DNA from: Thermodesulfobacteriota bacterium | GTDB taxonomy: Bacteria; Desulfobacterota_D; UBA1144; Nemesobacterales; Nemesobacteraceae | Length of the DNA stretch: 64,000 nucleotides | Assembly (NCBI GenBank): GCA_965202785.1 | Contig: OZ241855.1 | Coordinates: forward strand, 869,088-933,087 | Direction of reading: 5' to 3' | In this document: piece by piece, positions 3,265-54,137 of the stretch | How the letters are laid out: every line of letters starts with the position of its first letter | How positions within the stretch are numbered: position 1 is the first letter of the stretch | The notes under the pieces: generated by a model | Database searches by the model: none | What the model was told of the DNA's origin: nothing | Seen by the model: only the letters and a program-made list of their open reading frames with translations | Translations under genes and position numbers: made by a program

Positions 3265-3359
3265 GGATGTTTACACGGGCAATCCGCACTTCATAATACT
3301 TCAATTAGACAACTTGATACGGACAGACTAAGGCTGTTTTCTGTAATTCTAGGTTTCGA

Positions 3360-3926
3360 TTATTGACCGTGGGCAAGGCCGTAGAGCAGCACTTGGTCAG
3401 TCCACAGTTCTACTTGTACACCGTTTGTTTCATAGATCCCCGGCTCCACATCCTTTATGTTGTCTGCTATCGGCAAGACATATAAGGTGTGAATAATCTG
3501 GCTTTTGCTGTGGCTCAACTTCAATTGGGCTGCCTGAGACCCTTGAATGGTGCAGTACTTGCCCCCTGCGAGGACGAAATCCTGAACAAATTCGTCGCGG
3601 CGGGGCCGGATGGGAAAGTCCAACTCGCTGAGTGCGGCCTGTACAACGGCGTACTGGTCTGATTCCACCACCAGTGCACCGTGTTGGCGGTGATTGTGTC
3701 CGATTTCGGCGACCACCTGATGGGTAAGGCTGCTGTCCGTACTAATGTGCAGCCACAACCCAATTCCGATTGTTAGCAATATGACCGCAGCAATTGGGAT
3801 AAGATAAGAAACACTGTGGCGCGTTCTTTCCATCTCATGGACGGAGGCTTGCATTGCCGTGATTTTGTGCGAATCAAGGCGCTTGCTTCGATAGTAGTTC
3901 TTGAGTTCTTGTTCCAAGTTCTTCAT
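3360..3926 (-). CDS. Putative anti-sigma factor; single-pass membrane protein co-transcribed with the ECF sigma
   Basis: Its start lies 4 nt after the sigma gene's stop. It has one central TM segment (LIPIAAVILLTIGIGLWL). Function is inferred from gene context only. Confidence 0.5.
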   Translation of the reverse strand: MKNLEQELKNYYRSKRLDSHKITAMQASVHEMERTRHSVSYLIPIAAVILLTIGIGLWLHISTDSSLTHQVVAEIGHNHRQHGALVVESDQYAVVQAALSELDFPIRPRRDEFVQDFVLAGGKYCTIQGSQAAQLKLSHSKSQIIHTLYVLPIADNIKDVEPGIYETNGVQVELWTDQVLLYGLAHGQ

Positions 3927-3930
3927 TGTC

Positions 3931-4401
3931 TCAGTCGGCCGCGTCTAGGGTGGCCAGTTTTTTCCTACTTCTATGTATGAGGCTCAGGACGGTTCCCCGA
4001 GGCCTGTCGGTCAGCGTGGCAATTTCATTAGCCGAGTAGCCCTCCACGATATGTAGAAACAGGACTTCGCGCTCAATATCCCGCAGCTTGGAAAGCATCT
4101 GATCTATGGCGACCTTGGTGTCTCCCCCGGTGGCGGCGCCGGAAGCCGAGAGACCCTCGTGTTCGCTAGTGAGTGTGATAAACTGGACGCGTTGCCGTCT
4201 GCGATACTGGTCGATGTACAGATTTCGGATAGTTGTGAAAAAAAGGGCTTTTGTTTTCACTTTTTTATACCTCTGATGCAACTTAAGCCAAGCCGTCTGC
4301 ACTAGATCCTCAGCGTCGTGATGGTGATGGGTGAGTGCGTAGGCATATCGGAACCCGCTTTGTAACAGTTCTTCTGCACTGAGTGATGGAGATGCTGGCA
4401 T
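3931..4401 (-). CDS. ECF-type RNA polymerase sigma-70 family factor
   Basis: Region 2 (AEDLVQTAWLKLHQRY...FFTTIRNLYIDQYRRR) and region 4 HTH (EREVLFLHIVEGYSANEIATLTDRPRGTVLSLIHRSRKKL) are recognisable. Confidence 0.8.
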   Translation of the reverse strand: MPASPSLSAEELLQSGFRYAYALTHHHHDAEDLVQTAWLKLHQRYKKVKTKALFFTTIRNLYIDQYRRRQRVQFITLTSEHEGLSASGAATGGDTKVAIDQMLSKLRDIEREVLFLHIVEGYSANEIATLTDRPRGTVLSLIHRSRKKLATLDAAD

Positions 4402-4461
4402 GGTTTCATGCGGGCATGGAAGGCCGCGACCGCTTCCAAGTCCGTATACTCCGTGGCCGAT

Positions 4462-4845
4462 TCAGTTTTCCAAATGATACGCCCGTTTGACCTTCCCGAC
4501 TTTGTGTACGATACCCTGTAAGGCCCGGAACTTACCGTCTTTTTCGATCACGAGAAAATCAAGGTCGAAATAGATGCCGTTGCGATCGTGGAAATCCGCG
4601 CAACTGACGTAGTAATCGGCCTTTTTAACGATTCCTTCATGCAGCTTTGTGAGCTTGAGCTTTAGGAGGTCGCCCGTGATTGCGTCATACAGGACATAAT
4701 GTCCGTTCACCGTGTTGTGGTCAATATGCTCCTGCATCGCTGTCTGGATGCCGCGGCGTCTGTCTCCTTTTATACTTGGGTCGTCGGCGGCAAAGGCTGT
4801 GAGGGTGAAAGCCAGAAAAACCAGTATTCCCATTATGCTCTTCAT
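4462..4845 (-). CDS. Secreted hypothetical protein; first gene of the ECF sigma operon
   Basis: Clear signal peptide MKSIMGILVFLAFTLTAFA-ADD. It is co-oriented with and directly upstream of the sigma/anti-sigma pair. Confidence 0.6.
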   Translation of the reverse strand: MKSIMGILVFLAFTLTAFAADDPSIKGDRRRGIQTAMQEHIDHNTVNGHYVLYDAITGDLLKLKLTKLHEGIVKKADYYVSCADFHDRNGIYFDLDFLVIEKDGKFRALQGIVHKVGKVKRAYHLEN

Positions 4846-4860
4846 ATTGAATATCTCCTT

Positions 4861-4916
4861 TAAAGTGTGTACTCACTTAGTAAAGACGAACGGGATGCTG
4901 CTGTGATTGCATCGAG
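4861..4916 (+). repeat. Copy 2 of the 56-bp direct repeat (see 1039..1094)
   Basis: Near-identical to copy 1. It lies between the start of the secreted-protein/ECF operon and the 3' end of mnmG. Confidence 0.85.
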
Positions 4917-5009
4917 CGGTCAACAGCAACTATTTTTTTTGTCGAAACTGTTGCATTTGTAAAAACTGTTCCTATAATCTATGTAAAATTTTTTTCAGGG
5001 GGGACCAAA

Positions 5010-5182
5010 TGGCTAATAGAAGAAATGATAAGAAAGTAAGAGATCTTGTCGAGATGATGCAAGATCCCGAAGGTTCCGGCTACATCGGAAGCGACTGCGA
5101 CACCATGGAACTTTACGAGCAGGAACTTGAGGAGATGGAGGGGGCCGACAGCTTTTACGACGGGGAACTTGATTTCAACTGA
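5010..5182 (+). CDS. Small acidic hypothetical protein (57 aa); uncertain
   Basis: ATG follows a cagggggga RBS-like motif: MANRRNDKKVRDLVEMMQDPEG...DGELDFN. It overlaps the 3' end of mnmG convergently, so it may be spurious. Confidence 0.25.
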
Positions 5183-7071
5183 GCTTCCTGCTCAAGCCCC
5201 CGCGTTTTCCTGATATGAACAAGCAGTACTGATATAGCGGCGGGAGTTATGCCCGAAACCCGACTTGCCTGCCCTACGGATTCGGGTTTTACTCTTGAGA
5301 GTTTCTGAACAATTTCGTTTGAAAGTCCCGGAATGTTTTTGTACTCAAAGGTTTCCGGGATTTTCATATTCTCGAATTTCTGCAATTTCCCGACTTCTTC
5401 TCTCTGCCTTTTTATGTAACCTTCGTATTTTACTTCCATCTCTATCTGCCCACCGAGTTTCGGGGAGATGTCCGGATTCGCTGCGGAGTCTATAAAGCCC
5501 AGCATTTCATACGTGAAACCGGGCCTTCTGAGTATCTCTTTTAGACTCTGGGGCTTTTTGATTCTCTGGGAACCGAGATTCTCGAGAATCTTGTTTGTTT
5601 TCTCGTTTGGAACCACCTTCTCGCTCTCAAGCCTTGCGAGTTCGTTCTCAAGCGCGGTTTTCCTGATGCGAAATTCCTCGATCCGCTCGTCGCTGAGAAG
5701 CCCTATGGAGTGTCCAAGCTCCCCGAGTCTTAAGTCGGCATTGTCCTCCCTCAGTATAAGCCTGTACTCTGCCCTTGAGGTGAACATCCTGTAGGGCTCA
5801 TCGACTCCTTTTGTGACCAGGTCATCAATCAGAATTCCTATGTAGGCCTCCGAGCGTCCGAGCACGAAAGGATCTTTCCCCTTTACCCGAAGCGCCGCGT
5901 TTATTCCCGCTATCAGTCCCTGGCTTGCCGCCTCCTCGTAGCCCGTGGTCCCGTTTACCTGTCCCGCGAAAAATATGTTTTCAAGAAGTTTTGATTCAAG
6001 AGTGGCAGCAAGCTGCGTGGGGTCGAGAAAGTCGTATTCGACTGCGTATCCCGGCCTCATTATTTCCACGTTGCGAAGTCCTTCCATGGTTCTTGAGAAC
6101 TCGTGCTGAACTTCAATGGGAAGGCTGGTTGAAATTCCGTTGGGATAGATTTCGTAAGTATTTCTTCCCTCAGGTTCGAGAAATATCTGGTGGCGGTTCC
6201 GATCGGGAAACTTGACTACCTTGTCTTCTATCGAGGGGCAGTACCTTGGTCCTATTCCCTTTATGAGGCCGGAGTAAAGAGGGGACTTGTCGATGTTTTC
6301 GTTTATAACGCGGTGGGTTTCCTCGTTAGTGTAGGTGATGTAGCACGGCATCTGCTCAGTCGTGATTTCTCCGGCGGAAAAGGAAAAGGGTACGGGGTCC
6401 TCGTCCCCGTCCTGCCTCTCAAGCTTGTCCCACTCGATGGTCCTTCCGTCAAAGCGCGGAGGAGTTCCGGTTTTGAGCCTGCCTGTAGTGAAACCCAGCT
6501 CCGCGAAGGAATTCGATATGGCTCCCGCGGCGGCTTCCCCCGCGCGGCCGGACGAAATCCGCGTAAGGCCTATGTGTATGAGTCCACCGGGAAAAGTTCC
6601 AGGGGTAACCACGACGGTATCTGAAAAAAATCTTTCCCCGAGGGCGGTCTTAACCCCCGCGACTTTCTTGCCGTCAACCAGAAACTCCTCGACCATCGCC
6701 TGTTTTATCTCTATATTCGCTTCGCTCTCAAGAGCCTTTTTCATGTAGGTTCTGTAGCTCTGGCGGTCGGCCTGTATTCTGGTTGCCTGCACCGCCGCTC
6801 CCTTCCGGGTGTTGAGTCTCCTGAACTGTATGGCCGCGGTGTCTGCGGCTTTCCCCATTTCTCCGCCCAGTGCGTCTATTTCCTTTACAAGGTGACCTTT
6901 TCCGACACCCCCTATTGAAGGATTGCACGACATAAGTCCGATTGTGTCTATGTTCGCCGTGAGAACCAGGGTCGTACAGCCCATCCTTGCCGCGGCGAGT
7001 GCCGCCTCGCAGCCCGCATGGCCGGCTCCGATCACTATCACTTCGTATTTTTTTGAACTTATAAGAGACAT
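5155..7071 (-). CDS. mnmG: tRNA uridine-5-carboxymethylaminomethyl(34) synthesis enzyme MnmG (GidA)
   Basis: N-terminal FAD motif YEVIVIGAGHAGCEAALAAARMG. Full-length 638 aa with GidA family conservation throughout. Confidence 0.95.
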   Translation of the reverse strand: MSLISSKKYEVIVIGAGHAGCEAALAAARMGCTTLVLTANIDTIGLMSCNPSIGGVGKGHLVKEIDALGGEMGKAADTAAIQFRRLNTRKGAAVQATRIQADRQSYRTYMKKALESEANIEIKQAMVEEFLVDGKKVAGVKTALGERFFSDTVVVTPGTFPGGLIHIGLTRISSGRAGEAAAGAISNSFAELGFTTGRLKTGTPPRFDGRTIEWDKLERQDGDEDPVPFSFSAGEITTEQMPCYITYTNEETHRVINENIDKSPLYSGLIKGIGPRYCPSIEDKVVKFPDRNRHQIFLEPEGRNTYEIYPNGISTSLPIEVQHEFSRTMEGLRNVEIMRPGYAVEYDFLDPTQLAATLESKLLENIFFAGQVNGTTGYEEAASQGLIAGINAALRVKGKDPFVLGRSEAYIGILIDDLVTKGVDEPYRMFTSRAEYRLILREDNADLRLGELGHSIGLLSDERIEEFRIRKTALENELARLESEKVVPNEKTNKILENLGSQRIKKPQSLKEILRRPGFTYEMLGFIDSAANPDISPKLGGQIEMEVKYEGYIKRQREEVGKLQKFENMKIPETFEYKNIPGLSNEIVQKLSRVKPESVGQASRVSGITPAAISVLLVHIRKTRGLEQEAQLKSSSPS

Positions 7072-7197
7072 TTTTCTAAATCACCTGAGTGATTTCCAAC
7101 GCCAATTATAACCGCCAAACCTCGACGGATAAACGGGGAAAAGCCTTTGGAACTTTTTTCCTAGAACCTCTTCAGGACTTTAACCGAGAGGTGACTA

Positions 7198-7905
7198 TTA
7201 GCTACAAAACTGCGAGAAGATGCTTTCAATTTTTTCTTCGCTCGCTTCACGTGTAAACAGTGTGAATCTGGATAAGTGCGGGAGCCTTAAAAGTTTGGTT
7301 TGGGCCTTATCGCCGAACTCGATAATATCTGCTGTGTAGTCACCCCAACCTGTTTGCAGCTTGTACGATTTTCTCTCGGGCAACTTATAGACGTTTTCAA
7401 TTATTTTTCTGATGCGTTCTCTAGTTTCTGTATTAATACACACAAATAGCCTCGGCTGAACAGATGTGAGTATTTCCGACCATATTTTCTCTCCGAAATC
7501 AAATGCCTCTTTCTTGTTTTCTAGGTTCTCTAGATTTGGAGACCTGAAAGGTACAAAGTGTCCGGATAAAGTGGATTCTATAAGTTCGCGTTTGTTACCA
7601 GGATAATTTATTTTTTTGTGGATTTTTCCAAACATTTTTTGAATTTGTATTTGTAGCTTGCTCTCCCCTGGCTTCTTGCCGCCCCAGCTTTCATCTAAGT
7701 AGGGACTGCCTTCCTCGCAACTGGGGGAGGGGTGGTCGTGGCGTATTCTGCTCCCGCCTGGATTCAATGTAATAAAGGCTATCTCAGGATTGTCTTTCAA
7801 GACGGACTTTGAGCAAGTCAAGAATCTCCAACCAAGTTCATAGCTATGTTCTTGATAGAAGTTCTTTATTTGTTCTACTGTGTCTTGGAAAATATCCTTC
7901 GACAT
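7198..7905 (-). CDS. Hypothetical protein with a uracil-DNA-glycosylase-superfamily-like motif arrangement
   Basis: FITLNPGGS resembles the GxNPG motif-A variant of MUG/SMUG. HFVPFRSPNLENL...EAFDFGEKIWSEILTSVQPRLFVCINTE matches the family-4 UDG pattern NVVKCRPPxNR...C..YL..ql..i.PkvIvaLG. The C-terminal LPHLSRF matches the HPSxLxR-type motif B. The local composition is AT-richer than its flanks. Confidence 0.4.
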   Translation of the reverse strand: MSKDIFQDTVEQIKNFYQEHSYELGWRFLTCSKSVLKDNPEIAFITLNPGGSRIRHDHPSPSCEEGSPYLDESWGGKKPGESKLQIQIQKMFGKIHKKINYPGNKRELIESTLSGHFVPFRSPNLENLENKKEAFDFGEKIWSEILTSVQPRLFVCINTETRERIRKIIENVYKLPERKSYKLQTGWGDYTADIIEFGDKAQTKLLRLPHLSRFTLFTREASEEKIESIFSQFCS

Positions 7906-8030
7906 TTTGCTTGGATATTATACACAGCTAGGGTGTTCGTGGGATAAAACTTAGGATATTTCAATGGAAATTGTGCTTCTTTTGCGCTTTAAAATTGACC
8001 GAACTATGCGAAATTGTTAAAATTTTGAAA

Positions 8031-9134
8031 ATGATTTCTTCTCAATTCTCAGAATTTGTATCTTCAGTTAAAGACAAACTTGGGAAAAATGTCTACGAGA
8101 ACGAGGCTACGGTCAGCATGATGATAGTTCTGCCCGTTCTTAAGCATTTGGGCTGGCCAGCGGACAACCCTTCGTATGTATGCCCCGAGTATCGGCTCCA
8201 AGGGCGTAAGGTTGATTACGGTCTCAAGATATCCGAGGGCAAGGAAGAGGGTTTGCGATGCATAATAGAGGTTAAGGCCGTAGGAAATATAGTGGAAGCA
8301 GACCGCCAGCTTTTTGAGTATGCGTTTCACGCTGGCACGCCTCTGGCAATTCTTACTGACGGAAAACTGTGGAGATTCTATCTGCCCCTTGCCGCCGGGA
8401 AATATAAGGAAAGGCTTGTACGCACTCTTGATTTCGAGGAACACTCAATTGAGGAATTGGGTGAGGGGTTAGTGCGTTATGTTTCCTTTGATAATACGCG
8501 TTCGGGGCAGGCCAAGAAAAACGCGGAGAACGACCTTGATAAACGTATTGCCAAAGATGAGGCGAAGAAAAACATTTCAACTGCTTGGGAGAATCTGCTG
8601 GGTGGAGCTTCCGATAAGCTCGTTAATCTTTTGATTGAGGAAACATCGCTGATTTCATCCGCTCCAGAGAGATCGGACGTGGAGAAGTTTTTGAAGAATT
8701 TCAGAAACGCTGAACGAAGACAAGAGACTCCTCCCGAGATAAAACCGCGCAAGAAAAAGAAACACTGGTCTGAGGATCCTGCGGAGAGGAAGAAGAAAAA
8801 CAAGAAACCTTCTTTTTTCCTTTTGGGCCGAGAGTACAGGGATGAAAAAAACGTAACTTCCGCATTCGTGAAAATCTTTGAAATTCTTGCCGAGCGGGAT
8901 GGAACCTTCCTAGCGCGCTTAGCTCCAGAACTTGCGGGCAGGAAAAACAAACGCCTATCTCGAAATCTCACGGACCTGGGAGATATTGGCAGTAAAGTGG
9001 CCAAGCGATTCCCCGGGGGGTGGTGGTTAAGCACCCATTCGTCAACTGATGGGAAAATCTCTATTTTGCGAAAAGTCTGCAAAGTCGCAGAAATTCCTTT
9101 CGGGAAACCCGGTGGACTTAAAGTCGATTTTTGA
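8031..9134 (+). CDS. HsdR-N / PD-(D/E)xK nuclease-like domain protein with a Lys-rich linker and a C-terminal domain of unknown function
   Basis: VDYGLK...CIIEVKAVGNIVEADRQLFEYA fits the type I R-subunit N-terminal (HSDR_N) D...ExK...Q..Y pattern. A KKKKHWSEDPAERKKKNKK low-complexity segment follows. It is divergent from the 7198..7905 gene. The true start is probably the ATG at 8031, because the upstream TTG at 7971 lacks an RBS. Confidence 0.5.
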   Translation: MISSQFSEFVSSVKDKLGKNVYENEATVSMMIVLPVLKHLGWPADNPSYVCPEYRLQGRKVDYGLKISEGKEEGLRCIIEVKAVGNIVEADRQLFEYAFHAGTPLAILTDGKLWRFYLPLAAGKYKERLVRTLDFEEHSIEELGEGLVRYVSFDNTRSGQAKKNAENDLDKRIAKDEAKKNISTAWENLLGGASDKLVNLLIEETSLISSAPERSDVEKFLKNFRNAERRQETPPEIKPRKKKKHWSEDPAERKKKNKKPSFFLLGREYRDEKNVTSAFVKIFEILAERDGTFLARLAPELAGRKNKRLSRNLTDLGDIGSKVAKRFPGGWWLSTHSSTDGKISILRKVCKVAEIPFGKPGGLKVDF

Positions 9135-9276
9135 CCTGAGTCGCCAAGCAAATTCCTCAACCTAACGCTAGCCTCCCCGTTTTGTTGAATTTGCTGGTGC
9201 TAGTATTATATTTTCCTGTATAGCATAAACTTGGTTTTCAAAAGAAACGGAAATATTTCGGAGGCATTTATAGAAA

Positions 9277-10140
9277 ATGAATACTCTTAAAAGTCTTTTT
9301 CTGCTCGCTTTTCTCTCTGCCATTCTGGTTTGGGTAGGGGGCATGATAGGGGGCAAAAATGGTGCTTTGATAGCACTTGTTCTCGCGGGAGTTATGAATT
9401 TCGTGAGCTACTGGTGGAGCGACAAGATCGTTCTCAAGATGTACAAAGCAAGCGAGGTCGGAAGGGACAACGCGCCTGACCTCTACTCCGATGTCGAGGA
9501 ACTTGCCCAGATAGCGGGACTTCCAATGCCTCGTGTCTACATAATCCCCGAACAGGCCCCGAATGCCTTTGCCACGGGCCGGGACCCTCACCACTCAGCC
9601 GTTGCGGTTACTCAGGGAATCATGCGTCTTTTGAACAGGAACGAACTTAAAGGCGTAATTGCTCATGAGCTTGCCCATATAAAAAACAGAGACATCCTGA
9701 TCGGTTCCGTGGCGGCGACAATCGCCGGCGCTATCACCTATCTTGCCTACATGGCGCAGTTTGCAGCCATTTTCGGAGGAGGGGGAGGAGACAGAAGAGG
9801 CGGAGGGATGCTGGGACTTCTGGCTATGGCCATTATCGCCCCGATGGCGGCAATGATCGTGAGGATGGCCATATCGAGGACCAGAGAATTCGGAGCGGAC
9901 AAGACCGGGGCCGAGATATGCGGAAATCCGCTCTATCTTGCCGGCGCGCTCAGGAAGCTGCAGGCGGGAGCCTCGAGAGTTCCACTGCAGGTAAGCGAGC
10001 AGGCGGCTGAGAGCACGGCTCATATGATGATAGTGAGCCCGATGATCGGGGGAGGTTTCGCAAAGCTTTTCAGCACCCATCCTCCTACGGAAGAGAGAGT
10101 CGCACGGCTTGAAGCGATGGTCGGCGGTGCTTCCCTTTAA
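9277..10140 (+). CDS. htpX: Zinc metalloprotease HtpX
   Basis: [10 protein letters not shown] zincin motif, four TM segments and an M48 family layout. Confidence 0.9.
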
Positions 10141-40442: not shown

Positions 40443-41305
40443 AGTTCGGTATAACGGGTAAAAAGGATAGCGCGGAAGTCTACGAGATTGCCAGGCGGCT
40501 GTGCGGGTGGCTTCGCGAAAGAGACATAGAGTTCTTCGTTGAGGAGAATCTTGGGCGGAGCATAGACGCTGAGAACGTGCTTGCGGAGCGCGACCTAGCT
40601 GCGGCCGTCGACATAATAGTTGTGTTCGGGGGTGACGGTTCCTTTATCTGGGTTTCACGGATGGTGCAGGGCCACGATGTATCAATACTGGGCTGCAATC
40701 TCGGCGGACTCGGGTTTCTCACTGAATTCACTGTGGATGAGTTTTTTCCGATGATGGAGAGAGTGCTAGCCGGAGACTACGAGATAGAAAAAAGGGACAT
40801 GATATCGTGCTGCGTAGACAGAAAGGACGGAGAGCGGGAAGAATTCACGGTACTAAACGACGTAGTTATAAACAACGGTCCAATTTCCAAGGTTGTGGAT
40901 CTCTCCATATATATAAACGAAAAATACGTTACGACCTTTAAGGCTGACGGAATTATCTTCGCGACCCCTACCGGCTCAACCGCCTATTCTCTTTCTGCGG
41001 GCGGGCCGATAATTTATCCGACGCTGCCCGTGATAACCGTCACTCCAATATGTCCGCATATTCTTACCAACAGGCCTATCGTGGTTCCCTACACGAAAAA
41101 GATAAGGACGAGGGTGCTTACCGACATACAGAACACCTACCTCACGCTTGACGGTCAGGTGGGAGTTCCTCTTTATCTCGGCGACGAGGTTGTTCTTGAG
41201 GGTTCGGAGAGCTACGTGAATATCATAAAATCTCCTTTCAGGGATTATTTCAACATTCTGAAGACAAAGCTTATGTGGAGCGGGAGATATGAAAATTCCG
41301 AGTGA
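40439..41305 (+). CDS. nadK: NAD(+) kinase
   Basis: GGDGS motif, NDVVI, and a conserved PpnK body. TTG start overlaps the prfB stop (TTGA). Confidence 0.85.
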   Translation: MKFGITGKKDSAEVYEIARRLCGWLRERDIEFFVEENLGRSIDAENVLAERDLAAAVDIIVVFGGDGSFIWVSRMVQGHDVSILGCNLGGLGFLTEFTVDEFFPMMERVLAGDYEIEKRDMISCCVDRKDGEREEFTVLNDVVINNGPISKVVDLSIYINEKYVTTFKADGIIFATPTGSTAYSLSAGGPIIYPTLPVITVTPICPHILTNRPIVVPYTKKIRTRVLTDIQNTYLTLDGQVGVPLYLGDEVVLEGSESYVNIIKSPFRDYFNILKTKLMWSGRYENSE

Positions 41306-41657
41306 GGAGAAGTTAATCCATGACTGGGTAATAAGTCAGGTGGAGCACAAATACTCCTCCCTTTATAATGAGATAAGTACCAACCCCGGCGAAGAGCAAC
41401 TCTGTGAGTTCGAGGGTTTTTTCCCCGACGTAATTCTCGGTTCATATGGGCAGGTCGTGCAGATTATTGAAGTTGAGACCGAAGCCACTATCGACGAAAA
41501 AAGAAGCGAGTACTGGAAAGCGCTCTCGGAGCTTTCAGTCCAGCTTATCCTGCTCGTTCCCGCAAAGTCAAAGACCCACGTCACAGATCTTTGCTGGAAA
41601 TGCGGGCTCGCCGGCAAAGTGAAAATAGGAACTTTCGAGGTCTCAATCAGGATATAG
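41289..41657 (+). CDS. Hypothetical protein; possible PD-(D/E)xK-like fold
   Basis: FPDVILGS...QIIEVETE resembles a minimal PD...ExK-like arrangement. It overlaps the nadK end by 17 nt. Weak RBS. Confidence 0.35.
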   Translation: MKIPSEEKLIHDWVISQVEHKYSSLYNEISTNPGEEQLCEFEGFFPDVILGSYGQVVQIIEVETEATIDEKRSEYWKALSELSVQLILLVPAKSKTHVTDLCWKCGLAGKVKIGTFEVSIRI

Positions 41658-45558: not shown

Positions 45559-45631
<73 letters not shown>

Positions 45632-45700
45632 CATTATTTTCATGGTATTTTTGCGGGAGAAGCGGAATCTTCCCTTTTTTCTGCCTAGGCTAGGTGGTTT

Positions 45701-46144
45701 ATGCCGAAGATGCTTAATCAGACAGCTAATGCTCTAGTTGCTATCGCGGCTCTTCTTGCGGCTTGCGCTTTCATCGTGTCATGTTCTTCCGAGGCTCAGA
45801 CAAATCCGTGTCCGGACGGTACCGAACCTTATACTGAATACAGACTTTTTTTCGGGCGTGGGGACGACTCGGCACAGGTTGTGAGCGATGATGCTTGGGG
45901 AGAATTCCTTGAAGACACGATTACTGTTCAGTTCCCAGCCGGCCTTACCGTTCTGGACGCCCGTGGACAGTATACAGATTCCGCCGAAACACTGATAAGG
46001 GAAGATACGAAGGTACTTATAATTCTCGTCTCGCCGAATTCCGGTTCCGCTCCCAAGATAGACACAATTATTGATGAATACAAACAAAGGTTCACCCAGC
46101 AAGCGGTGCTGCGCCAGGTAATAGATACCTGCGCATCCTTCTGA
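45701..46144 (+). CDS. Putative lipoprotein (hypothetical)
   Basis: Signal peptide with lipobox (LLAACAFIVSC-SS). 147 aa. First gene after tRNA-Phe. Confidence 0.5.
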   Translation: MPKMLNQTANALVAIAALLAACAFIVSCSSEAQTNPCPDGTEPYTEYRLFFGRGDDSAQVVSDDAWGEFLEDTITVQFPAGLTVLDARGQYTDSAETLIREDTKVLIILVSPNSGSAPKIDTIIDEYKQRFTQQAVLRQVIDTCASF

Positions 46145-46293
46145 CCCTCTTGCCTTATTCCGGCTTTACTTCTTACCTTCTTTTCTTTGTTTTAACTCCT
46201 GTATCTAAAGTTGGTCTGAGCGGATTGTTTTGTTATGTACATTAGGTTAGTATTAGCTTACACAGGATTGTTTTATTCTCGGAGGAATTTTAA

Positions 46294-46707
46294 ATGAAGT
46301 TTGGAGATTATCTAAAGAGGATAAGGAAGAGGAAAAAGATTACCCAAGAGAACCTCGCTCGATCTCTTGAGGTTTCAAGCGTGTACATACATCAGCTTGA
46401 AACTGGAAAGGTTGACGCACCCTCCTTTGATCGCTGCCAGCAGATATCTTCAATCTTGGAAGTCAAGGTTGAGGAAATCTGGAGCGTCTCCAGGACGGAG
46501 AGACTCAAAAGATTCATCGAAAAAGAGGCCATATCCGAACAGGAACTCGAAGTTCTCACGAATGAGGAGAAGATGCTCCTTAAGCTTTACAGAAGCCTTG
46601 ACGGAGAAATAAAAAAGGATTTTGCCGGAATGGTATTCATGCTTCTCCGACATTCTCAGGACAAAAAGCTACGCAAGATACTTGAAGAGTTTGTAAAATG
46701 CGCCTGA
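46294..46707 (+). CDS. XRE-family helix-turn-helix transcriptional regulator
   Basis: The N-terminal LKRIRKRKKITQENLARSLEVSSVYIHQLETGK is a typical HTH_XRE. AGGAGG RBS. AT-rich coding sequence. Confidence 0.75.
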   Translation: MKFGDYLKRIRKRKKITQENLARSLEVSSVYIHQLETGKVDAPSFDRCQQISSILEVKVEEIWSVSRTERLKRFIEKEAISEQELEVLTNEEKMLLKLYRSLDGEIKKDFAGMVFMLLRHSQDKKLRKILEEFVKCA

Positions 46708-47459
46708 ACCAGAAACTTGGACTGCTGTTCAAAATATCAATGGTTGAGCTGGGCATCATAGCCCTTATAGGGGTGGTGTTCTATTTTCAGTTTGACAATG
46801 CAAAAAAAGAGTTTGTCACTAAGACCAGAGCCATAGCCGAGACTATAGGCGACCAGGCGACCAGTTTCTATCAGGATCACGGAGAGGCACCCACAAGCGA
46901 CGAGTTCTATCTTTTTCTTGACGAAAGGCTGGGCAGGGAGAAGCTGTTTAACACCTTCGGGATCTCGCCAAAGTTTTTCAGCGTTACTTTCACCAAACAG
47001 CCGGAGAACGAATTGGCTTCCGGGCACTTTATGGAAAGCACTTATCCGCCCGAGGGGTATTCGGTTGAAAAATACGCAGGAAAGATCTCCGTTTCTGTTC
47101 CGTTTCTCTCCCCGCAGGTCGAGGGGCCGCTCGGCATAGTTAAGATCGATTCCGATACGAAAACATTGATGAAAAAGGTTTTCGCCGACAACTTCCTGCT
47201 TTACGTAGCCATTTTGATGGTGCTCAACAATCAGGCCTTCATTCTTCATCTGTTCTTAAGAAGGAGGAAGGAGGAGATTCCCTTCAGCGAGGGTTATCTC
47301 AAGGAACACTCCATAAGCGCGCTTAAGCTGATGCACAAGGTGCTTGGAGACATAATAGAAGACCACGCTTCTGAAGATAAAAAAACCGCGAAAGAGAAAA
47401 CCGTGGATACGCCAAACGTAATTTCGATTTCAAATGCGGGTACTAAACTGGAAAAATGA
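46698..47459 (+). CDS. Hypothetical membrane protein (two TM segments)
   Basis: N-terminal TM (VELGIIALIGVVFYF) and a second TM (FLLYVAILMVLNN). Overlaps the previous gene by 10 nt. The N-terminus MRLNQKLGLLFK is vaguely PilN-like (INLLP). Confidence 0.5.
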   Translation: MRLNQKLGLLFKISMVELGIIALIGVVFYFQFDNAKKEFVTKTRAIAETIGDQATSFYQDHGEAPTSDEFYLFLDERLGREKLFNTFGISPKFFSVTFTKQPENELASGHFMESTYPPEGYSVEKYAGKISVSVPFLSPQVEGPLGIVKIDSDTKTLMKKVFADNFLLYVAILMVLNNQAFILHLFLRRRKEEIPFSEGYLKEHSISALKLMHKVLGDIIEDHASEDKKTAKEKTVDTPNVISISNAGTKLEK

Positions 47460-47821
47460 AAAAGAGCTTCCTAATCACTTCATTGTTTCTCCTTGCGGCC
47501 TTTGTTCTTGCGGCCTGCACCGCGGAGGAATCCGCCGTTGAACTCGACGGGCCGGTTCTCCAGACCGAGAACTTTGACGGAAGCGTGGATTTTAACGGCG
47601 CCGTGGTGAACACAGCGGATTTTCCGGTACAGTCGGTTTACGTCGTTATATTCGCAAAGGATTCGGATGGAAACGCCCTTGCCGCGACCTCCGCTCTTGT
47701 TGAGGAAGGGGAAAGACTTGATCCTACGGAAAGCTTTTTCTTCACAGCCAGTTTCGATGATCTTCCCCCGGAAGCCCATTCTAGGGAAGTGCAAATATAT
47801 TACGATCTTGTGGAAGAGTAG
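47456..47821 (+). CDS. Putative lipoprotein
   Basis: Signal peptide plus lipobox (LLAAFVLAAC-TAEE). 121 aa. ATGA overlap with the upstream gene. Confidence 0.55.
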   Translation: MKKSFLITSLFLLAAFVLAACTAEESAVELDGPVLQTENFDGSVDFNGAVVNTADFPVQSVYVVIFAKDSDGNALAATSALVEEGERLDPTESFFFTASFDDLPPEAHSREVQIYYDLVEE

Positions 47822-47836
47822 TTTCCTATCCCCGGT

Positions 47837-48922
47837 TTGTTGATTTCTCCTTTTAAAAAATTGGCTTTCGGTAAACTTCACCGCCCAGATTCGCTCCCTG
47901 AAGGGAAAGATGCCGTGGCTGGAATAGATATAGGCTCAAGTTCCGTTAAGGTTGTGGAACTTTCCTACAGGGGTGGAAACTACCGGCTTGAGAATATGGG
48001 AGAGGCTATGCTTCCTAGAGATGCGGTAATCCGCAAGTCGATTTCAAGGGGCGACATAGTTTCGGGGGTTGTATCAAGTCTCGTTTCTAGGCTCGGTGTG
48101 AGAACGAAAAAGGCGGTTATAGGGGTTTCCGGCGAAGCTGTTGCTTTAAAAGTCGTCAATGTTCCCAGAATTTTTCTCAGAAAGGATATGGAAAAGCTTG
48201 TTCCGGACCTTGTGAGAACCAGTCTTTGCAGAAACGTTAACGGGGTTAATTACAGCTACACTCCGCTTTTCCGCCGCAACGGAAAATCCGAAGAGACTCA
48301 GGTGCTGGTTGCGGCAGTTTCGAAAAAAACGGCGCAGGAGTATAAAAGTTCGCTTTTCTCGGCGGGCCTTCGCGCCCGGGTAATTGATGTTGACGCCATG
48401 GCTCTTTCAAACAGCTACGCAACTTTTTGCCGAGGTCGCGGTCAAAAGGTGGCGCTTGTGAACATCGGAGCGTCAGGGACTAACTTGAGCGTTTTGGACG
48501 GCACAGTGCCTTTTATACTGAGGGATATTCCGCTTGGAGGGCAATGGATTACGCTTCGTTTGATGGAGAAATTCGAAATTACCTACGAGGAGGCGGAGAG
48601 AATAAAGTTCAGCATTAAGGGTTATGGCAGATATGACGAGATAGAAAGTGTTTTCACTGATTTCGTTGCTCGTGCCATAGATGAGATAAAGATGGTTCTT
48701 GACGAAGCTGGAGACGTAATCGACCAAATAATTCTTTCCGGTGGATCTTCAAGAATAGCAACTCTCGCCGATACGCTTGGAGAGGCTACGGGGGTTCCGG
48801 TCGAGATTTCGAATCCTTTTCGAAACATCACTGTTTCGGATTCGCATTTTGATCCTGAATACATTGAACATCTGGCCCCAAAGATGGCGGTTGCGGTGGG
48901 GCTTGCGCTCAGGGGTTTGTGA
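47837..48922 (+). CDS. pilM: PilM-like actin-fold ATPase (type IV pilus assembly protein PilM family)
   Basis: AGIDIGSSSVKVVEL phosphate-1 motif, VIDVDAMAL, IGASGTNLSV, and the ILSGGSS adenosine motif. Full PilM/FtsA-like length. No pilN/O/P/Q downstream. Confidence 0.7.
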   Translation: MLISPFKKLAFGKLHRPDSLPEGKDAVAGIDIGSSSVKVVELSYRGGNYRLENMGEAMLPRDAVIRKSISRGDIVSGVVSSLVSRLGVRTKKAVIGVSGEAVALKVVNVPRIFLRKDMEKLVPDLVRTSLCRNVNGVNYSYTPLFRRNGKSEETQVLVAAVSKKTAQEYKSSLFSAGLRARVIDVDAMALSNSYATFCRGRGQKVALVNIGASGTNLSVLDGTVPFILRDIPLGGQWITLRLMEKFEITYEEAERIKFSIKGYGRYDEIESVFTDFVARAIDEIKMVLDEAGDVIDQIILSGGSSRIATLADTLGEATGVPVEISNPFRNITVSDSHFDPEYIEHLAPKMAVAVGLALRGL

Positions 48923-48960
48923 ATAGAAGAAAAAGCTGGTAAGAAATTCCGCGTACCGGA

Positions 48961-49143
48961 TCAGTTTCTTGACGGTATAAGGTGGACTATCAGAGAGACC
49001 GCAAGCGCGACTGCGCCGACTACCGAGAGAACCTTAAAGTAAAAAGACCAGTCAAGTGAGAATTTGAGGGAGATTCCGAAACCTACTATAAAGAGAACAA
49101 GCGCGGTTATGAGGATCCCTCCGAGGATGTTTGTTCTAAGCAT
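48961..49143 (-). CDS. Small two-TM membrane protein (hypothetical)
   Basis: A 60-aa ORF encoding two hydrophobic helices. No other support. Confidence 0.25.
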   Translation of the reverse strand: MLRTNILGGILITALVLFIVGFGISLKFSLDWSFYFKVLSVVGAVALAVSLIVHLIPSRN

Positions 49144-51277: not shown

Positions 51278-52399
51278 TTACCTTGAGATAGCATCCGGCA
51301 AGCGGTAGCTTGTGCTTCGTCCGCCACCGGGGTTCTGAATAAAAATCCCGCGTGACTTTAGGTCTTGGATATCCCTTAGTGCCGTGTCGGGAGAGCACTT
51401 GGCCAGTTTAGCATATTTTGAGGTATTCATATGCCCTTTAAAACCATCTTCTAGCATGCGATTAATAATCAGACGCTGACGTTCATTGACAGGTCGCCGA
51501 TTAACTTTTTCCCATAGTTGCGCTTTAAACAAGACAGCGCTCAGTGCCTCTTCGGCGTTGGCAATAGCGCGGCCGAAGCAATCCAAGAACCATTCAAGCC
51601 AACCCGTTACCTCCGGCGCGCTGCGCTGCTGCTTTTCCAGTTGGTCATAATAATCCTTACGCTCAGATTCAAATTGCGATGAAAGGCTGTAAAAGCGGTG
51701 CGGCATGCCGTCAGCGCGCGCCAGGGCCATATCGGCAATCGCTCTACCAATACGTCCATTACCATCTTCAAATGGATGAACCGTCACAAACCACAAATGA
51801 GCAATACCGGCTCTGAGCACAGGGTCAGTATCATCTTTGCTCTCAAACCATGCCAGAAACTCTGTCATCTCATGCTCAAGACGCTCCGCATCCGGGGCTT
51901 CAAAATGAACTTTTTCACGTCCAATAGGGCCAGAAACCACTTGCATTGAACCTGATTCCGCGGAGCGCCATCCACCGACTGCGATACGACGCATGCCGCT
52001 ACGACCAGTTGAAAATAGCGCGGCATGCCAGTCAAACAGCCTCTCTTTTGTTAAGGGTTTGGCAGATTGCTGAGTCGCATCCAGCATGATTTCGACAATC
52101 CCTTCGACATCTCGGTTCACTGGCACGGGGCTAGCGATATGAATGCCCAGTCGGCGGGCGATTGACGAACGAACCTCTCGGGGATTCAGATTTTCCCCCT
52201 CGATGGCCGATGATTTAACAACGTCGCTTGTCAAAGTGCTTAGACTTGCTTCTCTCTTCAGTTCAAAACCTAATCCTTCCATTCTGCCTAATAAACGGCC
52301 CTGACGGTGCCGAATATCTGCAAGCTTAGAAGCGAGTTTTCCGCTGTCCCAAGTGAAGTCCGGCCAACTCTGATGTTTGTATATCCACATGTTATTCAC
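51278..52399 (-). CDS. Fic family protein (AMPylase/adenylyltransferase type) with C-terminal winged HTH
   Basis: Fic motif HPFEDGNGRIGR. The N-terminal SSAIEGEN (Fic_N / inhibitory [S/T]xxxE[G/N]-like) region. 373 aa. AT-rich. Confidence 0.85.
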   Translation of the reverse strand: MNNMWIYKHQSWPDFTWDSGKLASKLADIRHRQGRLLGRMEGLGFELKREASLSTLTSDVVKSSAIEGENLNPREVRSSIARRLGIHIASPVPVNRDVEGIVEIMLDATQQSAKPLTKERLFDWHAALFSTGRSGMRRIAVGGWRSAESGSMQVVSGPIGREKVHFEAPDAERLEHEMTEFLAWFESKDDTDPVLRAGIAHLWFVTVHPFEDGNGRIGRAIADMALARADGMPHRFYSLSSQFESERKDYYDQLEKQQRSAPEVTGWLEWFLDCFGRAIANAEEALSAVLFKAQLWEKVNRRPVNERQRLIINRMLEDGFKGHMNTSKYAKLAKCSPDTALRDIQDLKSRGIFIQNPGGGRSTSYRLPDAISR

Positions 52400-52619
52400 C
52401 GTATTATTTGCAGTGATTATAACCTTGTTCTCCGTAGAAGCAAGAAAAATTGCCGCAAAATATGCGGTGAATGAAATCGCTATTCACCGCATAGCGCCAA
52501 GTTCTCTTGATAGCGTATCCATCCAGCCGGCAGGATGCATCAAATAAAACATAAAATTTGCATGGTAGATTATATTTCAAAGGTTGTAATTTGTATCATT
52601 GCCTATCGTGGAGTATGTG

Positions 52620-53162
52620 ATGGAACTTGAAACACTCTGGCAGAAATATAGAGCTAATATAAAAGCATTTTTACATTCAAGGGTTTCTAATCCAGACGAT
52701 GTTGATGACTTGTTGCAGGAGGTATTAATCAAAACCTACAAAAACCTCGACACGCTTGCCTCAGAAAACAGCATCAAGCCATGGCTGTTCCAGGTTGCAA
52801 ACAATACGATTATTGACTTTTACCGCAAAAAAGGACGTCTGAATAAGTTCATACATGACGACTTTCATTTGGATGAAGAAGATTCTGATACACAAGATGA
52901 GCTTGCGCGGTGCATAGAGTCTTTCATTAAAAACCTGCCACAACAGAATGCAGAACTTTTAACAGTTATTGATATAAAAGGTCGATCGCAAAAAGAGTAT
53001 GCAGAGGAGACAGGCGTTAGTTATTCCACACTTAAATCCCGTGTGCAAAAAAGCCGAGATTTGTTGCGAAAGCTCTTTGATGATTGCTGTCATTTATCTT
53101 TTGACCAATTTGGCAGAGTTATTGAATACACTCCAAAGTCAGGCGATTGTAAAAATTGTTAA
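52620..53162 (+). CDS. ECF-type sigma-70 family RNA polymerase sigma factor (SigZ-like) with a C-terminal Cys-rich extension
   Basis: Region 2 (DDLLQEVLIKTYKNL...PWLFQVANNTIIDFYRKK) and region 4 (AELLTVIDIKGRSQKEYAEETGVSYSTLKSRVQKSRDLLRK) are recognisable. A C-terminal tail CCHLSFDQFGRVIEYTPKSGDCKNC follows. GGAG RBS. Confidence 0.8.
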   Translation: MELETLWQKYRANIKAFLHSRVSNPDDVDDLLQEVLIKTYKNLDTLASENSIKPWLFQVANNTIIDFYRKKGRLNKFIHDDFHLDEEDSDTQDELARCIESFIKNLPQQNAELLTVIDIKGRSQKEYAEETGVSYSTLKSRVQKSRDLLRKLFDDCCHLSFDQFGRVIEYTPKSGDCKNC

Positions 53163-53229
53163 GTTTTTTTCGTCTTTTTTGTTTGCTGCACGTCTTACAG
53201 GTAAAGCAACCAAAAAATAGGAGTTAAAG

Positions 53230-53937
53230 ATGATTAAAGTTATCAGCTTCAAAATTTGTCCATTCGTTCAGCGCGTGACTGCTTTGCTTGAAGCTAAGAA
53301 TTTGCCGTATGAACTGGAATACGTTGACCTAGGCAAGAAACCGCAATGGTTTTTAGACATATCACCAACAGGACAAGTTCCTGTGCTGATTACGGAAGAT
53401 GGAACGGCATTATTTGAATCCGATGCTATCGTTGAATATCTGGATGAGGTTTTTGAACCTTTAGAATCCGATCTTACGCCGGAACAACGTGCTCTTGATC
53501 GCGCATGGAACTATCAAGCCACAAAACATTACCTTGTGCAATGTTCTGCACAACGTAGTGCTGATAAAGATACTCTTATAGAGCGTTCAGCAAAATTGGG
53601 TAAAGCGTTTGAAAAAGCCGAAAAAGCTCTGGGCGAAGGTCCATATTTTAAAGGAAAAACATTCAGCAATGTTGATGTTGCCTGGATACCTTTACTTCAT
53701 CGCGCGGCAATTACTGAAAAACATAGCTGCTATGATTTCTTGGCTCAATATCCGAAGGTCAAGGCATGGCAGGCTTCACTTTTAAAAACGGATGTGGTGA
53801 CAAACTCGGTTGCAGATGATTTTGAGAAAGCTTTTACGGGTTTTTATTTATCTGATGAAACTTTTCTGGGTAAATATAAAGAGTGCTCTACAGAGCCATT
53901 TAGTAGAAAATCCTGTGAAGCGTATGAATGTTGCTAG
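53230..53937 (+). CDS. Glutathione S-transferase family protein
   Basis: N-terminal thioredoxin-like GST domain (FKICPFVQRV...PTGQVPVL...ESDAIVEYL) and a helical C-terminal domain. AGGAG RBS. Confidence 0.8.
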   Translation: MIKVISFKICPFVQRVTALLEAKNLPYELEYVDLGKKPQWFLDISPTGQVPVLITEDGTALFESDAIVEYLDEVFEPLESDLTPEQRALDRAWNYQATKHYLVQCSAQRSADKDTLIERSAKLGKAFEKAEKALGEGPYFKGKTFSNVDVAWIPLLHRAAITEKHSCYDFLAQYPKVKAWQASLLKTDVVTNSVADDFEKAFTGFYLSDETFLGKYKECSTEPFSRKSCEAYECC

Positions 53938-54046
53938 GATTTGAATTATGCGGAAATGCATATGACTAAAATCTGATGCGTTAGAATAGAATAAAGCCAT
54001 GTGTTTCCCGTTCTCAGAGTTCGAGAATGTGAACAACTGTACTGAG

Positions 54047-54137
54047 TGGCGGAGGGAGTGGGATTCGAACCCACGAGGGCCAAAAAGACCCCACTGGTTT
54101 TCGAGACCAGCGCCTTAAACCACTCGGCCATCCCTCC
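54047..54137 (-). tRNA. tRNA-Ser (anticodon CGA)
   Basis: The reverse complement GGAGGGATGGCCGAGTGGTTTAAGGCGCTGGTCTCGAAAACCAG...long variable arm...GGTTCGAATCCCACTCCCTCCGCCA folds as a class II tRNA. Anticodon loop CTCGAAA. Confidence 0.85.

Follow-up and report, generated by a model that had tools for sequence, protein, structure and literature searches.

A lone pilM gene at a conserved Dadabacteria locus as the probable survivor of an ancestral pilMNOPQ operon

Introduction

The stretch of DNA analysed here, referred to below as the window, comprises 64,000 nucleotides (nt) of contig OZ241855.1 from a member of the Thermodesulfobacteriota and carries, between a tRNA-Phe gene and the RNase R gene rnr, a compact gene cluster that ends in an orphan copy of the type IV pilus assembly gene pilM. 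As had been described from the letters alone (the sequence-only reading), tRNA-Phe is followed by five co-directional open reading frames (ORFs) with overlapping stops and starts, an arrangement upheld by ORF calls and ARAGORN, and family searches agree with the product types assigned at that time, namely a lipoprotein (ORF1), a helix-turn-helix (HTH) protein of the XRE family (ORF2), a protein with two transmembrane (TM) helices (ORF3), a second lipoprotein (ORF4), and a full-length PilM (ORF5). ORF2 and ORF3 overlap by 10 nt (46698/46707) and ORF3 and ORF4 by 4 nt (47456/47459), which suggests translational coupling within the HTH-ORF3-ORF4 trio, and only 38 nt separate the pilM stop from an oppositely oriented small gene of 60 amino acids (aa), beyond which lies rnr (Table 1). 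PilM is indeed orphaned and tightly linked to the XRE regulator, the two-TM protein, and the small lipoprotein; no pilN, pilO, pilP, or pilQ stands between it and rnr, in the window and likewise in 26 orthologous loci. Comparison with these and more distant loci indicates that the lone pilM is, with high probability, the sole survivor of an ancestral pilM-N-O-P-Q operon and two or three accessory genes, which decayed during genome reduction, and that it has been kept with its partner-binding region remodelled.

The ancestral operon and its loss

The related loci, given L-numbers here, come from metagenome-assembled genomes (MAGs); 26 orphan-type loci were compared with the window, together with deeper relatives. 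Contigs of the orphan clade come from MAGs that carry the label Candidatus Dadabacteria or Thermodesulfobacteriota, and many are closed chromosomes of 1.5-2.4 Mb. All 26 loci share the gene order amt, BBP2 porin, tRNA-Phe, (ORF1), HTH, ORF3, ORF4, pilM, the 60-aa ORF on the minus strand, and rnr, and this collinearity persists down to ~47-48% PilM identity. Identities to the window proteins range from 80 to 99% for the HTH protein, 75 to 96% for ORF3, 47 to 93% for PilM, and 58 to 97% for RNase R.

Beyond the orphan clade, ORF3 homologues at 54-65% identity occur in other MAGs of this group. Four of these deeper relatives (L027, L028, L030, and L031) carry a complete pil operon in the same slot, where the trio is followed by PilM, PilN (PF05137), PilO (PF04350), PilP (PF04351), and a secretin, with an ORF4-pilM spacer of 270-470 nt. 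The genomes of two of them measure 3.1 Mb (L027) and 2.7 Mb (L028). In L028 a 61-aa ORF and rnr follow the operon, as they follow pilM in the window, and upstream synteny in L031 matches the window back to prfB. Two other relatives, L029 (2.0 Mb) and L032 (1.8 Mb), have the trio directly followed by the small ORF and rnr, and pilM is absent. In a tree built from HTH, ORF3, and ORF4, the clade that retains pilM only is monophyletic in 200 of 200 bootstraps, and the pil-less L029 and L032 nest separately among full-operon lineages, so that the pil operon would have been lost independently at least three times, with pilM surviving once.

Searches with tblastn for relics of PilN, PilO, PilP, PilQ, and the genes downstream of them returned none in the window or in any orphan locus, and no pilus or secretion genes were found in the rest of the 64-kb window or in the flanks of 6-10 kb on either side of the 26 loci. 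None of the 120 best matches of L028 PilQ (all at 63% identity or more) lies on an orphan-clade chromosome, which suggests that the clade has no secretin elsewhere. A single deletion at the base of the clade, extending from pilN to just before the 60-aa ORF, would account for a loss of about 6 kb, and the ORF4-pilM spacer would have shrunk from 270-470 nt to 93 nt. The far edge of this deletion appears to be marked by the 60-aa ORF, an ancestral downstream neighbour that the sequence-only reading had missed. It is the most conserved gene of the neighbourhood (85-100% identity in the clade), has no informative family match, and in every lineage separates rnr from the pil locus or, in L029 and L032, from ORF4.

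In the full-operon relatives, two or three conserved genes of about 190, 280-420, and 212 aa, with no Pfam match, follow pilQ (L028, 16555-18863; L027, 16588-18057; L030, 6758-8200; L031, 16235-18096). These genes, deleted along with pilNOPQ in the orphan clade, may encode undescribed pilus accessory proteins.

The orthology of the orphan PilM with its operon counterparts is argued from position and best-match identity, because the orphan clade stands alone on a long branch of a neighbour-joining tree that is uninformative on this point. Within the clade, PilM identity declines from 96% to ~48%, and beyond it drops to 37%. Among 5.8e9 proteins, the closest matches of the window PilM outside the clade are positional operon PilMs, first P0083, which is the L030 PilM, and then P0084-87, which belong to the same Dadabacteria-type operon PilM group. 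A second, normal pilMNOPQ operon with another pilM, which would have made the window gene a stray paralogue, was not found in the 64-kb window, the flanks of the loci, or the best PilQ matches; the orphan pilM is instead the positional orthologue of the operon gene.

Identity, start, and remodelling of the orphan PilM

ORF5 is a bona fide PilM by its profile matches. It scores 183.6 bits against PF11104 (cut-off 27), covering profile positions 1-339 of 340, and 182.5 bits against TIGR01175 (cut-off 133), and PilM entries of the PDB are matched with E values of 1e-46 to 3e-24. With the PilMs of type IVa pili (TIGR01175/PF11104; solved structures 3JC8 from M. xanthus, 5EOX/5EOU from P. aeruginosa, and 2YCH from T. 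thermophilus) it shares a full-length match above the curated cut-offs, an architecture like that of actin and FtsA that includes the IC subdomain, and the complete set of nucleotide-binding motifs; it is ~37% identical to M. xanthus-type PilMs, and by position it descends from a pilMNOPQ operon. It differs from them in that no pilN, pilO, pilP, or pilQ is adjacent or was detected in the clade (loci and best PilQ matches searched), in the replacement of its IC signature, and in that the gene abuts an unrelated regulator/sensor operon with which it is probably co-transcribed.

The longest ORF starts further upstream than the gene itself appears to. The TTG at 47837 was rejected as the pilM start, since the 26-codon extension it implies is broken by stops or frameshifts in at least seven of 25 orthologous loci. 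A Shine-Dalgarno-like GAAGGGA precedes the GTG at 47915, and relatives mostly have ATG at that place, preceded by GAGGGRA; the start is almost certainly GTG 47915, and the protein length of 335 aa and the 93-nt spacer both follow from this placement. The spacer itself (47822-47914) can be read as if it extended the N-terminus (LISPFKKLAF...), in a frame that some genomes keep open and others have broken; it may be what is left of a leader or coding sequence now in decay, or else a regulatory element.

The lone pilM is not a pseudogene. Its ORF is intact in all of the 25 or more species-level genomes, down to 47% identity. Ratios of nonsynonymous to synonymous substitution (dN/dS, Nei-Gojobori method, nine close pairs) are 0.13-0.28 for pilM and 0.13-0.22 for rnr, with 0.00-0.12 for HTH, 0.04-0.32 for ORF3, and ~0 for the 60-aa ORF. 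These values place pilM under purifying selection.

PilM has nevertheless diverged further than its neighbours. In pairs of full-operon genomes PilM identity equals ORF3 identity (73 vs 73%, 56 vs 56%), whereas orphan-clade and L028 proteins are 37% identical for PilM and 58% for ORF3. Columns at least 85% conserved in 41 operon-type PilMs were checked in 80 orphan-clade sequences. Among 103 such columns, 65 are kept and 20 are relaxed, and at the other 18 a different residue has become fixed. The kept columns include GxDIGSxxxK, DxD, NIGA, RD..GG, AExxK, and GGxS, and those that bind the nucleotide (phosphate-1 DIGSxxxK, DxD, phosphate-2 NIGA, and adenosine GGxS) are invariant or nearly so across the 80 sequences. 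The changed columns cluster at residues 86-114, where 11 of 12 signature columns are switched or relaxed and one is kept, the operon-type pattern EEL.ES..W..E..IP....DV..D giving way to KDMEKLVPDLVR..L....VNYS. The remodelling is specific to PilM, since ORF3 keeps 105 of its 115 conserved columns, and the clade-wide re-fixation of 18 columns argues that they came under a new constraint and did not simply drift.

PilN binds the IA-IC cleft of PilM (PMC7613929). By alignment and general knowledge of the fold, residues ~86-114 would correspond to the IC insertion beside this cleft, and the IC-subdomain signature that flanks it thus appears to have been rebuilt into a sequence that is conserved throughout the clade. 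Related actin-fold proteins offer precedents for such a change. FtsA and the cytoplasmic domain of GspL share the IC subdomain and use the IA-IC region for other partners (FtsN and GspE, respectively), so that the fold can change partner with its architecture kept; FtsN and PilN both bind the IA-IC cleft, in different ways (PMC7613929). Weak T2SSL and FtsA Pfam signals occur in the window PilM family, yet the window protein scores 182 bits as PilM vs 37 bits as FtsA (cut-off 176) and is without a GspL-type TM helix or periplasmic extension. PilM-like proteins outside classical pilMNOPQ operons are also represented by the Amuc_1101 family (NF045709), which the window protein matches at 100.7 bits over residues 26-259; this score is far below the cut-off of 650 bits, the window protein has 335 aa rather than ~608, and the neighbouring genes are different.

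The HTH-ORF3-ORF4 module

The genes upstream of pilM form a unit with a distribution of its own. ORF2 matches HTH_3 (PF01381) at 41.5 bits against a cut-off of 23, has a highly conserved helical C-terminal domain that ends in KCA, and is paired with ORF3 in every lineage, distant ones included. ORF3 has no Pfam match at E<=0.1 and no NCBIfam match. A brief N-terminal segment in the cytoplasm leads into TM1, which is followed in the periplasm by an alpha/beta domain of ~130 aa; after TM2 come a conserved helix on the cytoplasmic side, GYLKEHSI(G/S)ALK(L/I)MHKVLGDIIEDH, and the C-terminal motif NVISIS. An AlphaFold2 model from a 44-sequence alignment (predicted local distance difference test, pLDDT, 67) places a helix at residues 2-61 (TM1 and stalk), two short helices, four strands, a further helix, TM2 at 166-191, and the cytoplasmic helix at 200-224. 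In this model the fold between the TM helices resembles PDC/Cache sensor domains, with no Cache or PAS match in Pfam, and ORF3 looks like a two-TM, PDC/Cache-type periplasmic sensor. Its predicted architecture recalls the single-PDC/Cache receptors CitA, WalK, TlpB, and KinD, from which it differs in having no kinase, MCP, GGDEF, or other output domain, with a cytoplasmic helix of ~25 residues only. Because ORF3 is without an output domain, its output would pass through a separate protein, presumably the product of the overlapping HTH gene. ORF4 has an invariant lipobox Cys21 and a sub-threshold FxLYD-domain match; a single-sequence model (pLDDT 63) gives an all-beta Ig/FN3-like sandwich with generic fold matches only.

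It had been proposed that the cluster might be a rearranged, minimal PilM-PilN-PilP-like module, with ORF3 faintly PilN-like at its N-terminus and ORF4 in the place of PilP. This proposal does not hold. The trio sits upstream of genuine pilN, pilO, and pilP in the full-operon relatives, so that ORF3 and ORF4 are not homologues of these proteins, and profile-profile comparison by hhalign was negative throughout, with probabilities of 0.3% for the ORF3 family against the relatives' PilN, 2.9% against PilO (TM helix only), and 9% for the ORF4 family against PilP (signal peptide only). True PilN N-termini in the relatives read MIRVNLLG, MIKINLLP, or MIRINL(K/L)P, with the family form MIR(I/V)NLL(P/G), whereas the N-terminus of ORF3 is kept across its family only as MR[LI]; ORF3 has two TM helices vs the single-TM, bitopic topology of PilN. 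Pfam, NCBIfam, and fold searches likewise speak against ORF3 as PilN or PilO and against ORF4 as PilP.

The ORF3 family is very small, with 29 representatives only among 1.84 billion in an exhaustive profile search. In its divergent members, too, an XRE/HTH_25 gene comes first and overlaps the ORF3 gene or lies close to it. In L035 (1-9156) and L036 (2-6622), HTH and ORF3 are followed by an ORF4 homologue (hhalign 95%) and stand head-to-head with gspC-D-E-F-G-H, and in L033 (227-2174) and L034 (86-2033), they are followed by a response-regulator-PilZ gene. The trio appears to be an old module that is repeatedly associated with type-IV-filament and secretin systems and is kept where those are gone, and its neighbours hint at a general link to type IV filament systems.

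With respect to function, the trio would most likely be a module that carries envelope signals to transcription, in which the membrane sensor ORF3, helped by the lipoprotein ORF4, would control how active or how available the soluble HTH protein is. RodZ (HTH_25, TM, and periplasmic parts, with an HTH that binds MreB) provides a possible analogy, in that an XRE/HTH_25-type gene here overlaps a membrane-protein gene near an actin-fold protein. In the window, however, the HTH and membrane parts are separate polypeptides, HTH_25 scores 22.9 bits, below its cut-off of 24.6, no DUF4115 is present, and HTH-ORF3 pairs also occur in genomes without PilM; for the L033 and L034 homologues, HTH_25 is listed unmarked among precomputed Pfam hits. 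The trio exceeds RNase R in conservation and belongs to a tiny, uncharacterised family that recurs near genes for type IV pili, type II secretion, and PilZ, which makes it a candidate new regulator of type IV filament and secretion machines.

Promoters and transcription

Upstream of the HTH gene, a weak sigma70-like site, TTGTTT-17-TAGTAT, bracketed by the two GGATTGTTTT(G/A)TT repeats, lies in a block conserved in orphan-clade alignments (the repeat partly), and elements resembling TTGCAT/TTGATA...TAxAAT occupy the same place in other lineages. The site and repeats together are a candidate promoter/operator of the trio, in which the repeat could serve as an operator for autoregulation by the HTH protein. 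A consensus scan of the 93-nt ORF4-pilM spacer, which is conserved at the nucleotide level in the clade, found no terminator-like hairpin and no sigma70-like match. Since the long ORF4-pilM spacers of L027 and L028, and those alone, contain a promoter-like TTGACA-17-TATTTT, pilM would have lost a promoter of its own and would most likely be read through from the trio promoter. An Rfam scan of 45.3-49.4 kb gave nothing beyond tRNA-Phe.

Present role of the lone PilM

On the reading preferred here, PilM would no longer dock to PilN and would persist in the cytoplasm as an adaptor that binds ATP and has changed its partner. The first candidate for that partner, a choice made with limited confidence, is a cytoplasmic element of the probably co-transcribed trio, either the tail or N-terminus of ORF3 or the C-terminal domain of the HTH protein; next, and slightly less likely, comes an ATPase or platform protein left over from a type IV filament system and encoded elsewhere. 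In its fullest and most speculative form, which we put forward as a tentative and on balance unlikely proposal, PilM would have been captured by the HTH/PDC-sensor/lipoprotein operon after pilNOPQ was lost, its rebuilt IA-IC surface would bind the ORF3 tail or the HTH C-terminal domain, and the trio would be a regulatory module, so far undescribed, that serves secretin and type-IV-filament systems specifically, a dedication suggested by its adjoining pilMNOPQ, gspCDEFGH, or a response-regulator-PilZ gene across lineages. The suggestion of a novel use for a PilM-fold protein, made as an alternative in the sequence-only reading, gains some support from purifying selection and the remodelled IC subdomain.

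Several points weigh against the account of a surviving and repurposed operon gene. The orthology of the orphan PilM is mainly positional, the protein being about equally distant (36-37%) from many PilMs. The trio does not need PilM, since it persists without it in L029, L032, L033, and L035, and no convincing clade-specific compensatory changes were found in the cytoplasmic parts of ORF3, so that adjacency is the one positive link between PilM and the trio. Their co-transcription is argued from spacing and consensus scans only. Finally, pilB, pilC, pilT, pilins, a type II secretion system, or divergent pilN or pilQ genes could be present in the clade genomes outside the regions searched.

The last of these points leads to the possibility that PilM still serves a type IV filament machine (a type IV pilus, a type II secretion system, or a competence pilus), the other parts of which, perhaps with a PilN- or GspL-like partner of divergent sequence among them, lie elsewhere in the genome. 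PilM contacts PilB, PilC, and PilT besides PilN in the type IVa pilus family, purifying selection would fit a retained role in such a machine, and the searches covered locus regions and best PilQ matches rather than whole genomes. Graham and Tully reported type II secretion genes from non-pelagic Dadabacteria clades (PMC8115339). This possibility is weakened by the absence of orphan-clade chromosomes among the 120 best PilQ matches and of pil and gsp genes from the window and the locus flanks, and a rebuilt IC signature would be unexpected if the partners had stayed the same; it is thus considered rather unlikely. Literature searches found nothing on pili in Dadabacteria or on orphan pilM, and no pil entries appear in the part of the PMC8115339 supplements that was searched.

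Alternatively, the orphan pilM might be functionless debris under relaxed constraint, on its way to loss. Its divergence is ~1.5 times that expected from its neighbours (37% identity vs ~57%), 38 of the 103 conserved columns have been lost or altered, the N-terminal extension shows decay, and L029 and L032 have lost the gene altogether. Debris would not be expected to remain an intact ORF across so many species-level genomes with dN/dS equal to that of rnr, nor to hold its nucleotide-binding motifs invariant and re-fix 18 columns throughout a clade, and we judge this explanation improbable. Still more doubtful, to the point of being very improbable, is the idea that pilMNOPQ was wholly lost and a foreign pilM then inserted at the same site. 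The long separate branch and the 36-37% identity to any PilM, positional counterparts included, are what such a xenologue would show, but the five best outside matches are all Dadabacteria-type operon PilMs, the gene has the same position and orientation between ORF4 and the 60-aa ORF, no traces of mobile elements were found, and GC content at third codon positions is ordinary.

If pilM is the survivor of its operon, as we consider highly probable, then the clade offers a dated natural experiment, in which one component of the PilMNOP alignment complex has been selected clade-wide long after its obligate partners and the secretin were deleted, sister lineages having lost PilM too. Should its present partner prove to be a new one, the lone PilM would reveal how PilM/FtsA/GspL-type actin-fold adaptors exchange clients and where on their surface specificity resides. 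In practical terms, the annotation 'type IV pilus assembly protein PilM' in genomes of this clade is not evidence of piliation.

A core locus beside a variable slot

The cluster had been described as an AT-rich islet acquired horizontally at tRNA-Phe, holding a minimal PilM/PilN-like/PilP-like module under its own XRE regulator. Comparison of the loci shows instead a core, vertically inherited Dadabacteria chromosomal locus: ORF2-ORF5, the tRNA, and both flanks are collinear in 26 of 26 loci and in deeper lineages, and tRNA-Phe, the ancestral neighbour 5' of the HTH gene, is at the same position in all scanned relatives whose locus extends that far. The composition reported for the islet (about 40-45% GC) was too low. 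The segment measures 47.1% vs 49.8% for the window, which is the 8th percentile and ~1.5 standard deviations below the mean of same-sized windows (standard deviation 1.8%), and dips to 41-44% are confined to ORF2 (43.5%) and the ORF1-ORF2 spacer.

The absence of an integrase and of an att repeat was correctly noted, in that the ORFs of the segment include no integrase and the sole repeat at the tRNA 3' end (24 nt, 79%) lies within conserved ORF3 coding sequence; a direct repeat of the tRNA-Phe 3' end was also looked for at the far boundary, where there is no credible one. PADLOC (defence) and PHROGs (phage) scans gave generic HTH matches only. In the synteny survey, patchiness is confined to ORF1. 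The ORF2-ORF5 set is kept in all relatives (26 of 26 loci), whereas ORF1 is not constant: it is the only varying gene, absent from L026, and in L003 and L004 an RTX/collagen-like gene takes its place (L003, 6487-7830). The slot between tRNA-Phe and HTH is empty in L028, L029, L031, and L032, and in L027 it holds a four-gene insert of ~6.7 kb (2925-9594) encoding a P-type ATPase, a Usp protein, a CBAH hydrolase, and a methyltransferase. It is this slot directly after tRNA-Phe, not the pilM cluster, that behaves as a variable spot.

A tRNA-linked genomic island was accordingly rejected on composition, repeats, defence and phage scans, and synteny, and although the variable slot, the place directly 3' of the tRNA, the tight operon packing, and a somewhat GC-poor ORF2 would suit horizontal acquisition, the islet is already refuted for ORF2-ORF5, the supposed PilN- and PilP-like proteins being non-homologous companions of the real ones.

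Coordinates and neighbouring features

Table 1. Features of the locus between tRNA-Phe and rnr, in window coordinates.
Feature	Position	Strand	Basis or remark
tRNA-Phe(GAA)	45559-45632	+	ARAGORN; Rfam 70.5 bits
ORF1, 147 aa, DUF3574 lipoprotein	45701-46144	+	PF12098 E 2e-29; lipobox
13-nt direct repeat, GGATTGTTTT(G/A)TT	46222-46234 and 46265-46277		repeat search
Weak sigma70-like site TTGTTT-17-TAGTAT, 5' of HTH gene	46225-46253	+	read from sequence
ORF2, 137-aa XRE-family HTH protein	46294-46707	+	HTH_3 E 1e-10
ORF3, 253-aa two-TM protein	46698-47459	+	two hydrophobic helices; no family match
ORF4, 121-aa lipoprotein	47456-47821	+	invariant Cys21; weak FxLYD match
ORF4-pilM spacer, 93 nt	47822-47914	+	nucleotide-level conservation in clade
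Orphan pilM (ORF5), 335 aa, GTG start	47915-48922	+	PF11104/TIGR01175; longest ORF from TTG 47837
60-aa two-TM small protein	48961-49143	-	extreme conservation; between pilM and rnr
Promoter-like TTGAAA-16-TACAAT of 60-aa ORF	49209-49182	-	good promoter-like match
rnr start	49257		downstream of 60-aa ORF

Two further features of the window lie outside this segment. Between rnr and tRNA-Ser(CGA) (51278-54137), a Fic/DUF4172 gene, a gene for an extracytoplasmic function sigma factor, and a further ORF have a GC content of 37-42%; the Fic gene is missing from several relatives and the distance from rnr to tRNA-Ser varies widely, and this stretch fits the description of a variable, AT-rich spot linked to a tRNA better than the pilM locus does. 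Upstream, a 122-aa ORF (41289-41657) overlaps the end of the NAD kinase gene and has no Pfam match, and its occurrence in the same place and with the same length in all relatives suggests that it encodes a conserved small protein.

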